A DNA stretch of 32,488 nucleotides. Source: a virus (Duplodnaviria; Caudoviricetes). The stretch spans positions 1 to 32,488 of IMG/VR virus record IMGVR_UViG_3300049140_000190. One strand, written 5' to 3'. The notes beneath the pieces were generated by a model, which saw only the letters and a program-made list of their open reading frames with translations, was not told the origin of the DNA and made no database searches. This document shows, in pieces, positions 3,321-32,488 of the stretch. Each line of letters starts with the position of its first letter. Within the stretch, counting starts at the first letter, position 1. The position numbers were made by a program, and so were the translations under genes.

Positions 3321-3413
3321 AGGCCAAAAATGCAAACTAACCCCTATTTTCAACTTCTCTCTAACGCGCATAGAGAGAAAGTGAAAGTAGGGGTTAGTTC
3401 GACACTTTGGCCT
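3321..3413. repeat. Long AT-rich inverted repeat (43-bp arms, 7-nt loop)
   Basis: Arm 3321-3363 vs reverse complement of 3371-3413: 35/43 identical without gaps; weaker symmetry extends to about 3301-3435. Confidence 0.9.
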
Positions 3414-30957: not shown

Positions 30958-31042
30958 AGCGCCTCCGCTTCCTGCGCCCGTGCCTTACGCTGTGGGCTCC
31001 GTGCGGCCAGGGGAGGCCGCTAAGTTCATGGGGGGATGCGCT

Positions 31043-31669
31043 ATGCGCGCCTACATCCGCCGTGCCGTGGTGCCGGCCGTCGCTCTGTCCTTCGCCCTGG
31101 TGACGGGGTGCTCGTCCGATGACGGGGGCGGGGAGGCGACGTCGAAGCAAGAGCCAGCCGCGGAGGCTTCCGTCGAGCCGGCGGACGCGCCGTCATCGGA
31201 GCCGCCCTCTTCCGCCCCGGCCCCGGTCGTCAAGGTCGGTGAGACGAAGACGTGGGACTACGGCGAGACGGACGACTACGGCGAGAACTTCAAGGTCACG
31301 ACGAAGATGTCCGTCACGGTCGTCAGCGCGAAGTACGTGACGCCGGCTGAGATCGACACGACCAACAGGCCGGAGCAAGGTCAGTTCGTGGAGCTGACGC
31401 TGACGCTGAAGAACGTCGGCAAGGCTCCCGCGGACGTCATGCTCTACGGGATGCTGAAGTGGGAAGACGATCAGACGGCCGCGCAGGACGCCACGACGTT
31501 GGAGGGCGCCGGCGAAGGGCCGGAGCTGGACACGACGTACAAGCCGGGCCAGTCCGTCACGGGCAAGGTGGTGCTCGACGTCGCACGCAAGGGCGGGACA
31601 GTCAGCTACACCGGCACGGATGATCCCAACGCGGAGGCGGCTTTCGTCGTGGAGCTTCCGTCCTCCTGA
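31043..31669 (+). CDS. Lipoprotein with Ig-like (DUF4352-like) domain, 208 aa; candidate superinfection-exclusion or accessory protein
   Basis: Signal peptide with lipobox VTGC; Ser/Pro/Ala linker; GQFVELTLTLKNVG..PGQSVTGKVVLDV; only convincing plus-strand CDS. Confidence 0.85.
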   Translation: MRAYIRRAVVPAVALSFALVTGCSSDDGGGEATSKQEPAAEASVEPADAPSSEPPSSAPAPVVKVGETKTWDYGETDDYGENFKVTTKMSVTVVSAKYVTPAEIDTTNRPEQGQFVELTLTLKNVGKAPADVMLYGMLKWEDDQTAAQDATTLEGAGEGPELDTTYKPGQSVTGKVVLDVARKGGTVSYTGTDDPNAEAAFVVELPSS

Positions 31670-31678
31670 ACGTAGTCA

Positions 31679-31713
31679 GCCCCGCTCCCGGGAACTCTCC
31701 TCCGGGGCGGGGC
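31679..31713 (+). terminator. GC-rich hairpin after the lipoprotein gene
   Basis: GCCCCGC..GCGGGGC outer stem with additional inner pairing, about 10 nt after the stop. Confidence 0.6.
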
Positions 31714-31718
31714 GTGTC

Positions 31719-31727
31719 TGCTAGCGT
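31719..31727 (+). promoter_or_regulatory. Extended -10-like element (TG-C-TAGCGT) upstream of the mini-array
   Basis: TGnTAnnnT pattern ending 11 nt before repeat 1. Confidence 0.5.
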
Positions 31728-31738
31728 GGAACGCGCAA

Positions 31739-31871
31739 CATCTCCCCGCCGACGCGGGGGTGGCCCGGTTGATGGGCACGGAGGTTGTTCTCGAACCTCC
31801 TCTTCCCCGCCGATGCGGGGGTGTTCCTGCTTGGTACTCGAAGTGGTCCCCGCCGTTGCGGGGGATGGGGA
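31739..31871 (+). CRISPR. Cas-less type I-E-like CRISPR mini-array: 3 degenerate 29-bp repeats, spacers of 32 and 14 nt
   Basis: R1 31739-31767 CATCTCCCCGCCGACGCGGGGGTGGCCCG; R2 31800-31828 CTCTTCCCCGCCGATGCGGGGGTGTTCCT; R3 31843-31871 GTGGTCCCCGCCGTTGCGGGGGATGGGGA. Shared TCCCCGC-N4-GCGGGG hairpin plus 8-nt tail; 61-bp R1-R2 period. Confidence 0.82.
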
Positions 31872-31903
31872 GCGGCTCCGTCTGGGGCCGCTCTTCTCTG
31901 TGT
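31867..31903 (+). terminator. Terminator-like hairpin closing the mini-array (possibly bidirectional with the tRNA operon)
   Basis: GGGGAGCGGCTCC-GTCT-GGGGCCGCTCTTC followed by TCTGTGT. Confidence 0.65.
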
Positions 31904-31974
31904 CGGAACGGCAGGGATCGAACCTGCGTCCTCCCGCTCCCAAAGCGGGCGCCCGGCCTCTGGGCTACGTTCCG
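31903..31974 (-). tRNA. tRNA-Pro (anticodon TGG)
   Basis: CGGAACG/CGTTCCG-A acceptor; GCCC/GGGC D stem; CCCGC-TTTGGGA-GCGGG; GCAGG-TTCGATC-CCTGC; no encoded CCA. Confidence 0.92.
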
Positions 31975-32092
31975 TGGGCGGTGCCAGCCGGCGGCTCCCG
32001 AGTGGTGTTGGGACCGTTCACGGGCTCACGACTTGCGGACGATTTCAGAGGGCCACTCCCGCTCTGCGTCCTACGCCTCCGCCTGGCGCTCG

Positions 32093-32172
32093 TCCCTGGC
32101 CGTGGAATCGAACCACGCTAGCCGTCTCCAGCGCAGGCTTTACAGGCCCGCTTGCGTCCCAGCGCTCCAGGG
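32093..32172 (-). tRNA. Atypical tRNA-Tyr (anticodon GTA)
   Basis: CCCTGGA/GCCAGGG-A acceptor; loop CTGTAAA; long variable arm GCTG-GAGA-CGGC; CGTGG-TTCGATT-CCACG; weak D arm. Confidence 0.7.
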
Positions 32173-32177
32173 TTGCG

Positions 32178-32260
32178 CGGAAGGTGAGGGAGTCGAACCC
32201 CCAACGGCCGGAACCGCCACGCTTTTCGAGAGCGCGTGGCACGCCAGTGCCGGACCTTCC
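32178..32260 (-). tRNA. tRNA-Ser (anticodon CGA)
   Basis: GGAAGGT/ACCTTCC-G acceptor; loop CTCGAAA; long variable arm; GGGGG-TTCGACT-CCCTC. Confidence 0.85.
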
Positions 32261-32446
32261 TCGTCAGGGTCTTTGGTGAGGCAGGACCCGACGTCCCGGA
32301 GACTGCCTAGCCTCGCCAGTCCCGGGGGAGGGCGAGGAACAATGTGCTGTCCGGGTCCCGCCGTCGGACAGCATGGGTCGCGTCCGGCTCAGCCGGGGCC
32401 CACCTGCAAGGCGCGTGCTGATCAGTCACGCACGGGACGCCTCCTG

Positions 32447-32488
32447 TTGGCACGGAGGGATTCGAACCCCCAACGCACGGCTCCGTAA
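32447..32488 (-). tRNA. tRNA-Arg (anticodon ACG), 3' half only, cut by the window edge
   Basis: TT-ACG-GA loop, GCCGT, GGGGG-TTCGAAT-CCCTC, CGTGCCA-A. Confidence 0.7.

Follow-up and report, generated by a model that had tools for sequence, protein, structure and literature searches.

The second spacer of a small type I-E-like CRISPR array carried by a virus is probably a viral copy of a host guide that regulates Cas proteins (a Cracr RNA), likely repressing the Cascade operon of a Streptomyces type I-E system through the cas8e promoter. The array lies on the plus strand of a 32,488-nucleotide (nt) stretch of DNA (the window), positions 1 to 32,488 of IMG/VR virus record IMGVR_UViG_3300049140_000190 (Duplodnaviria; Caudoviricetes), and, as the original prediction described it, consists of three 29-nt repeats that enclose spacers of 32 and 14 nt. 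The 14-nt guide of spacer 2, GCTTGGTACTCGAA (31829..31842), is preceded by repeat R2 (31800..31828), which has a 6-base-pair (bp) stem and a 4-nt loop and whose last 8 nt (31821-31828) are the predicted 5' handle of the guide RNA; this handle differs from most host CreR handles at its last base alone. Repeat R3 (31843..31871) follows, with an intact stem-loop (31848-31863) and a degenerate 3' end that runs into a terminator-like hairpin, while repeat R1 (31739..31767) is near-identical in Streptomyces phage Samy. The stems and handle for Cas6e processing are thus intact, and, with boundaries placed where Cas6e is known to cut, at the foot of the repeat stem, the predicted mature CRISPR RNA (crRNA)-like RNA (31821..31863, plus strand) is 43 nt long, comprising the 8-nt handle, the 14-nt guide and a 21-nt 3' hairpin. 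A public-run contig covers positions 31400-32100 with zero differing letters or gaps, so the array is not a local assembly slip; the run is possibly the source of the same DNA and is not independent.

The best host counterpart of spacer 2 was found on plasmid NZ_CP054921.1 (Streptomyces sp. NA03103), where the first 10 nt of a CreR-type spacer are identical to those of spacer 2, the unpaired base 6 included. The predicted target on this plasmid has the protospacer-adjacent motif (PAM) AAC, is located 126-139 nt upstream of cas8e and overlies the predicted -35 box. Spacer 2 differs from this site at positions 6, 11 and 12 only, with matches at 11 of 12 pairable positions, and position 6 is the sole difference between the site and the guide of another virus, L564 (L numbers denote the loci and contigs compared here). 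Thus, a PAM-adjacent match, for which a search of cas operon promoters had been suggested, does exist over a predicted cas8e promoter. In a search of 168 host cas-related loci (710 kb, both strands, some overlap) that required an AA-PAM, no mismatch at positions 1-5 and a match at 8 or more of 10 positions, spacer 2 gave four PAM-plus-seed matches, all at the cas8e promoter site. The first 32 cas8e loci contained no spacer-2 match with a perfect seed.

The host side of this relationship was reconstructed from 251 Streptomyces genomes, 103 of which contain cas8e, by taking the 5 kb upstream of cas8e for 60 loci. Comparison of 99 viral guides with these 60 upstream regions gave 52 PAM-flanked matches; this total is not enriched, because it falls inside the range of shuffled guides (24-53). 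The matches of three guide families, however, clustered at homologous sites just upstream of cas8e, and three loci contained an antisense mini-array with a 14-nt spacer together with a matching AA-PAM site in the gap upstream of cas8e. We extended this clade by Cas8e homology with nine plasmid matches (60-80% identity) and four loci from 80 further genomes (65-68%). In all 16 clade loci (L411-L419, L325, L330, L331 and L567-L570; Streptomyces type I-E systems, often on large plasmids) an antisense CreR-type mini-array occupies the gap between cas3 and cas8e. Its spacer is 14 nt long in 12 loci, including all four that were added last, after the pattern was known, and 26 nt long in the other four, three of which are near-identical. 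Each clade guide matches its own site upstream of cas8e, preceded by AAT, AAC or AAG, at 9 or 10 of the 10 seed positions, and the S. avermitilis I-E system has been reported to use AAN as its PAM (PMC12231136; this and the other published sources are cited from the portions available to us). The identities of the twelve host 14-nt guides to their own targets, position by position, are 12, 12, 12, 12, 12, 2, 12, 12, 9, 12, 12, 1, 1 and 0, so guide and target co-vary except at positions 6 and 12-14; the unpaired positions 6 and 12 correspond to those expected to be flipped out in Cascade. In 12 of 12 loci tested the site overlaps the pattern TTGnAn, 17-18 nt, nAnnnT, which we interpret as the cas8e promoter with its -35 and -10 boxes. 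Clades neighbouring this one use guides of 20 or 32 nt.

The 14-nt length had been interpreted as exactly three Cas7 steps below a canonical spacer, in register with the 6 nt covered by each Cas7 subunit. In the matching host clade, most canonical array spacers have 32 nt (46 of 48 in L411, 33 of 39 in L416), so the length of spacer 2 equals 32 minus 18. The register is borne out on both sides: homologous viral guides stay at 14 nt, and 21 of 24 distinct host CreR-type guides are 14, 20, 26 or 32 nt long. An origin by an 18-nt deletion is not, since spacer 2 copies a 14-nt design already used for regulation by hosts. These host guides come from a screen of 139 regions upstream of cas8e for spacers of 10-39 nt, which detected CreR-type arrays in 25 loci; their lengths are 14 (eight guides), 20 (three), 21 (one), 26 (three), 32 (seven), 33 (one) and 34 nt (one). 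A strict host-CreR pattern was matched in 1 of 401 genomes. In the commonest clade, cas3 abuts cas8e with no intergenic promoter. A metagenome scan yielded four distant cas8e relatives, and no CreR-like array was present upstream in the three whose upstream DNA was read.

Scans of viral contigs identified guides related to spacer 2, located between type I-E repeats, in nine other contigs. Eight of these guides (L003, L004, L071, L047, L072, L564, L066 and L041) keep the length of 14 nt, and that of L039 is 15 nt long, which answers the proposal to compare spacer-2 lengths in homologous phage loci. Similarity of the flanks places the window with L133, joins L047 to L072 and L041, and pairs L132 with L135 (L564 was outside this comparison), while the flanks of L134 and L066 have little in common beyond the array. 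The viral carriers are therefore not all one lineage, since several have little but the array in common with the window. Among seven GCTTG-type viral guides compared, positions 1-5, 7, 8 and 10 are invariant, whereas position 6 is occupied by three different bases, as expected if every sixth base is flipped out by Cascade. Moreover, phage variants follow different promoter alleles: the guide of L066 matches the site of L325 at 11 of 12 positions, and that of L003 matches the site of L413 at 12 of 12. Since both length and seed recur in viral contexts and in host regulatory arrays, the suggestion that spacer 2 is not a decayed spacer holds, and the conserved sequence pattern indicates that the 14-nt spacer is a selected element and not the remnant of a 32-nt one.

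In the proposed mechanism, transcription of the array would start from an upstream extended -10 element (TG-n-TAnnnT; 31719..31727, plus strand), which was recognised by eye, is conserved in Samy and L133 and was not called in a sigma-70 scan of the window. It would end at a 13-bp hairpin directly 3' of R3 (31867..31896, plus strand), a likely terminator not called by a scan for T-run terminators. From published work, cleavage of R2 and R3 by Cas6e would be expected to release the 43-nt RNA; judging by E. coli and S. thermophilus complexes, host Cascade carrying this RNA would have about three Cas7 subunits. Bound at the AAN-PAM site, the resulting small Cascade would cover the predicted -35 box upstream of cas8e and hold the Cascade operon repressed without cutting, presumably with no Cas3 cleavage; Cascade synthesis would be lowered while the 43-nt RNA also competes with crRNAs. 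Engineered complexes provide the precedent. E. coli Cascade with a 14-nt spacer contains three Cas7 subunits by mass spectrometry, with Cse2 loosely bound, and shows slow but specific binding and primed adaptation with no interference (PMC5159557). Shortened S. thermophilus Cascades form R-loops without locking or Cas3 cleavage, and those shortened by odd multiples of 6 nt are unstable (PMC6859484). Because hosts keep 14 nt in 12 loci with co-varying targets, we think that the small complex works in this clade. If spacer 2 does repress, its complex would be nature's smallest working Cascade and would offer a compact, native CRISPR-interference design for Streptomyces.

Several observations weigh against this interpretation. 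With a spacer shortened by 18 nt, published complexes are unstable, do not retain Cse2 (Cas11) and give hardly any visible footprint (PMC5159557, PMC6859484), so repression by a three-Cas7 complex is not assured, and in the predicted fold of the free 43-nt RNA the seed is taken up in a 6-bp helix. The promoter boxes upstream of cas8e are pattern matches. Spacer 2 has a mismatch at position 11 and reaches 11 of 12 matches at just one of the 16 clade promoters, with 9 of 12 at four others and fewer than 10 of 12 at each of the four loci added last. A shuffle test does support the match, since only 11 of 20000 shuffles of the guide reached 11 of 12 within 12 intergenic regions, but it is flattered by the way the clade loci were chosen, through homology to one with a CreR that was already similar to spacer 2. 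In addition, the register is loose in phages. The count of viral mini-array units, covering 121 of about 140 stretches, comprises at least 101 distinct units in at least 56 loci, with peaks at 14 (8), 20 (31), 21 (18) and 32 nt (14); it leaves out seven loci with three or more canonical spacers, a handle filter removed REP-like pairs, and the units are not independent. The 18 units of 21 nt, that of Samy among them, are off the register by one. Finally, the cognate I-E system in the actual host of the phage may be an unsampled variant.

The original prediction considered spacer 2 either a regulatory guide or a sink for Cas subunits. The evidence favours the regulatory branch; a sink alone leaves both the seed conservation and the target unexplained. 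Under the sink explanation, the array would act as a decoy that titrates Cas6, Cas7 and Cas5 into small unproductive complexes, and its CreR likeness would merely reflect the origin of the captured unit. Racrs and non-targeting crRNAs do inhibit immunity through competition (PMC10651486), the instability and weak DNA binding of complexes shortened by 18 nt (PMC5159557, PMC6859484) would suit such a role, and so would the good fit of spacer 2 to only one of the 16 sampled promoters and the lack of a target found for spacer 1. A pure sink, however, requires neither the constancy of seed positions nor the variation at position 6 that viral guides display, and it does not account for the tracking of promoter alleles by L066 and L003 or for the matches of other viral guide families to AA-PAM sites upstream of other cas8e clades. 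We therefore regard a decoy-only function as improbable. Still less credit can be given to a decayed ordinary spacer or a functionless recombination scar between repeats. The unit is dispensable, because Samy has a single 21-nt unit at the array site and a related phage contig lacks the array, and the 3' end of R3 is degenerate; yet the R3 stem needed by Cas6e is intact, and a guide of this length and seed turns up again in viral contexts that are unrelated, as well as in 12 host regulatory arrays that have targets of their own locus, which makes decay a very poor candidate.

A different possibility is that the guide does more than repress. In such a case, pairing at positions 13-14 would complete the R-loop of the minimal Cascade on the host cas locus and lead to primed acquisition or Cas3 damage. 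Position 14 is A in each of the 10 viral guides (base 14 of 15 in L039) and in 12 of the 16 clade targets, whereas none of the 12 host 14-nt guides matches its target there and only one does so at position 13; the guide of the window matches both positions at L413, and in E. coli a spacer of 14 nt is sufficient for primed adaptation (PMC5159557). Against this stand the mismatch at position 11, the failure of shortened S. thermophilus complexes to lock or cleave (PMC6859484), the relatedness of the guides, by which the last base is perhaps inherited, and the harm that self-priming could do to a lysogen; we consider this outcome quite unlikely. The A at position 14 may instead make the phage guide a tighter repressor, or may be inherited. 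It is scarcely credible that spacer 2 directs Cascade against another phage or a non-cas host gene. Viral mini-arrays have been mentioned in the context of conflict between viruses (PMC10651486), and an 11-nt match leaves room for other targets, but no target was found within the window itself and the spacer is too short for interference (PMC5159557). A broad chromosomal target was also rejected: the strict PAM-plus-seed pattern gave 14 matches in the 251 Streptomyces genomes, below the 47 of a reversed control, and the contexts of the 14 contain no common non-cas promoter beyond one homologous pair.

The principle that phage RNAs turn Cas effectors on the effectors' own promoter is already described. 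The closest known system is the I-E Cracr array of a Salmonella prophage, which has spacers of 24 and 21 nt and represses casA (10.1101/2024.10.29.618823). The window array shares with Cracr arrays the location of repeat-spacer-repeat units in a virus, outside any CRISPR-cas locus, the stacking of guides, and shortened spacers that imply fewer backbone subunits; a 21-nt I-F guide, for example, assembles with four Csy3 backbone subunits (same preprint). Spacer 2 also has at least 9 PAM-proximal nt in common with a host CreR (10 nt, NZ_CP054921.1) and a PAM-flanked, partly complementary target at a predicted cas promoter (AAC, 11 of 12), comparable to the casA/cas8e promoter targets of Cracr arrays. 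It differs from the characterised I-E spacers of 24 and 21 nt in being 14 nt long, which predicts three Cas7 subunits. In the main text of the Cracr preprint, 'Streptomyces' and '14 nt' occur zero times and 'Actino' once; its Table S2 (219 candidates), which lies outside this comparison, may already list phages of the window type, because the table includes Actinomycetota. The host elements resemble known CreR mini-arrays in their antisense orientation to the cas genes between cas3 and cas8e, in their PAM-flanked partial target at a cas8 promoter and in the mismatch at position 6 (10.1101/2023.03.10.532045; 10.1101/2023.03.03.530964). Spacers of CreR or regulatory mini-arrays are typically 20-60 bp (10.1101/2023.03.03.530964), and those of I-F CreA/CreR 23-27 nt (10.1101/2024.10.29.618823), whereas the Streptomyces clade uses 14 nt in 12 of 16 loci.

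Racrs are likewise phage-encoded repeat mimics that compete for Cas proteins (PMC10651486). In contrast to these solitary repeat units, which form aberrant subcomplexes without target recognition, the window has three repeats and two spacers, a normal 5' handle and a seed-matched, PAM-flanked target. The array also departs from interference-competent viral mini-arrays, with spacer 2 being 14 nt long and spacer 1 lacking a near-perfect PAM-flanked phage protospacer. The engineered Cascades of E. coli and S. thermophilus share the shortening by 18 nt and, in E. coli, the three Cas7 subunits, but they are weakly binding laboratory constructs (PMC5159557, PMC6859484), whereas the length found here is natural and conserved in hosts and phages. 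What is added here is thus a natural 14-nt guide in both, at a length where engineered Cascades barely bind. Streptomyces is unmentioned in the available main texts of 10.1101/2023.03.10.532045, 10.1101/2023.03.03.530964, PMC10651486 and 10.1101/2024.12.27.630466, and literature searches that included supplementary PDFs of PMC10120712 and extended to the bioRxiv articles short of their supplementary tables returned no report of a natural 14-nt crRNA-like RNA (crlRNA) or of a Streptomyces case. The regulatory roles of actinomycete CRISPR-Cas are still described as an open question in a 2025 review (PMC12231136).

More tentatively, it is conceivable, though we would not bet on it, that the Streptomyces I-E clade uses a natural three-Cas7 Cascade, with half of the usual backbone, as its own transcription repressor, with the last two guide bases left unpaired as a safety margin, and that phages captured this guide and restored 3' pairing to obtain a tighter repressor that overrides host feedback, or even one that primes the system against its own locus. 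If so, guide length, quantised at 14, 20, 26 and 32 nt, would be a tuned parameter in an arms race. The named host locus on NZ_CP054921.1 and the exact guide-target pairs make the question directly testable.

Taken as a whole, the array appears to consist of stacked guides directed at different I-E variants of Streptomyces. Spacer 1 (31768..31799, plus strand) is a 32-nt guide whose 5' half is conserved in two other viral arrays, L047 and L072, and is similar to the guide of Samy. Its 3' part folds into a 7-bp hairpin (31780-31800), which is not conserved in the relatives in L047 and L072 and could leave only about 12 seed bases of spacer 1 exposed. The motif GT(T/A)CTCGAA, earlier noted in both spacers, is indeed present in both; it is not conserved, being missing from the 32-nt spacer-1 relatives of L047 and L072, and in spacer 1 it constitutes the loop and part of the 3' arm of the hairpin, so that its occurrence in both spacers is probably a coincidence. 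No target of spacer 1 was found in the host cas loci, genomes or Streptomyces phages searched. Of 401 genomes, 39 contained the spacer-1 pattern (46 matches), which does not exceed the control, and no cas promoter was recognised among 30 match contexts read. A near-perfect match in L487, in the intergenic stretch before a squalene-synthase-like gene, is at chance level by a base-composition estimate, and the best match in a Streptomyces phage, 17 nt in Gilgamesh (E about 3), lacks an AAN PAM. A loose-pattern scan of genome contigs gave one true array among 120 loci listed, the rest being mostly chance matches.

The Samy guide, for its part, has a PAM-flanked match in a Cascade operon, at a site upstream of cas8e. 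Upstream of cas8e in L422, L423, L425, L443, L445 and L472, a conserved AAC-PAM site, variable at position 6, lies downstream of a -10-like box, and the guides of Samy, L047 and L072 match this site at 9 of 10 seed positions. No cas3, cas1 or cas2 was found in the stretches read of these L422-type operons, which are followed by a protein of about 1,275 aa with a weak NACHT match in one of two tested. Phages may thus silence a putative STAND-linked minimal I-E variant.

Stacked guides are also seen elsewhere. In L047/L185 (a contig of Streptomyces sp. MH60) and L072, the array comprises guides of 20, 19, 32, 14 and 27 nt, three of which have matches upstream of cas8e, each in a different I-E clade; cas8e itself was not found in the Streptomyces sp. 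MH60 genome. The 20-nt viral guides of L047, L071, L091, L019 and L072 form a family that matches an AAC-PAM site in L302, L304 and L307; this site is located about 260-320 nt upstream of cas8e, within a 700-nt insertion that separates cas3 from cas8e. In Streptomyces phage Ignacio (MT451980.1; L563 1320-1620) an unannotated multi-repeat type I-E-like mini-array lies between genes 53 and 54, and its repeat is also matched in seven related phages; these are cultured phages of S. sanglieri, which would be convenient for experiments.

The window is a provirus record, 55% complete, with terminase, portal and capsid genes, and no Cas7 or Cas6e gene or family match was detected in this partial record. 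Samy is the closest annotated relative of its right end (79% identity over 63% of a 2.2-kb query). The array is flanked on one side by a DUF4352 lipoprotein-like gene and on the other by a tRNA cluster, and the late genes are on the opposite strand. The lipoprotein-like gene (31028..31669, plus strand) lies upstream in the same orientation and has homologues in Samy and L133. It is followed by a GC-rich hairpin (31680..31712, plus strand), recognised by eye and conserved in Samy, which is likely the terminator of this gene and would insulate the array. Downstream, tRNA-Pro (31902..31974, minus strand) bounds the insertion site, a modular hotspot that holds one 21-nt unit in Samy, a 14-nt unit only in L003 and no array in a related contig. 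An Rfam search of the window matched tRNA only. The tRNA cluster (31902-32488), with Pro, Tyr and Ser called and more tRNA-like remnants visible by eye, is unlike that of Samy (Pro, Leu, Cys, Gln). At the other end of the window, positions 3321-3413 contain a 43-nt inverted repeat (81% complementary, 7-nt gap) that is unusually A/T-rich for this phage.
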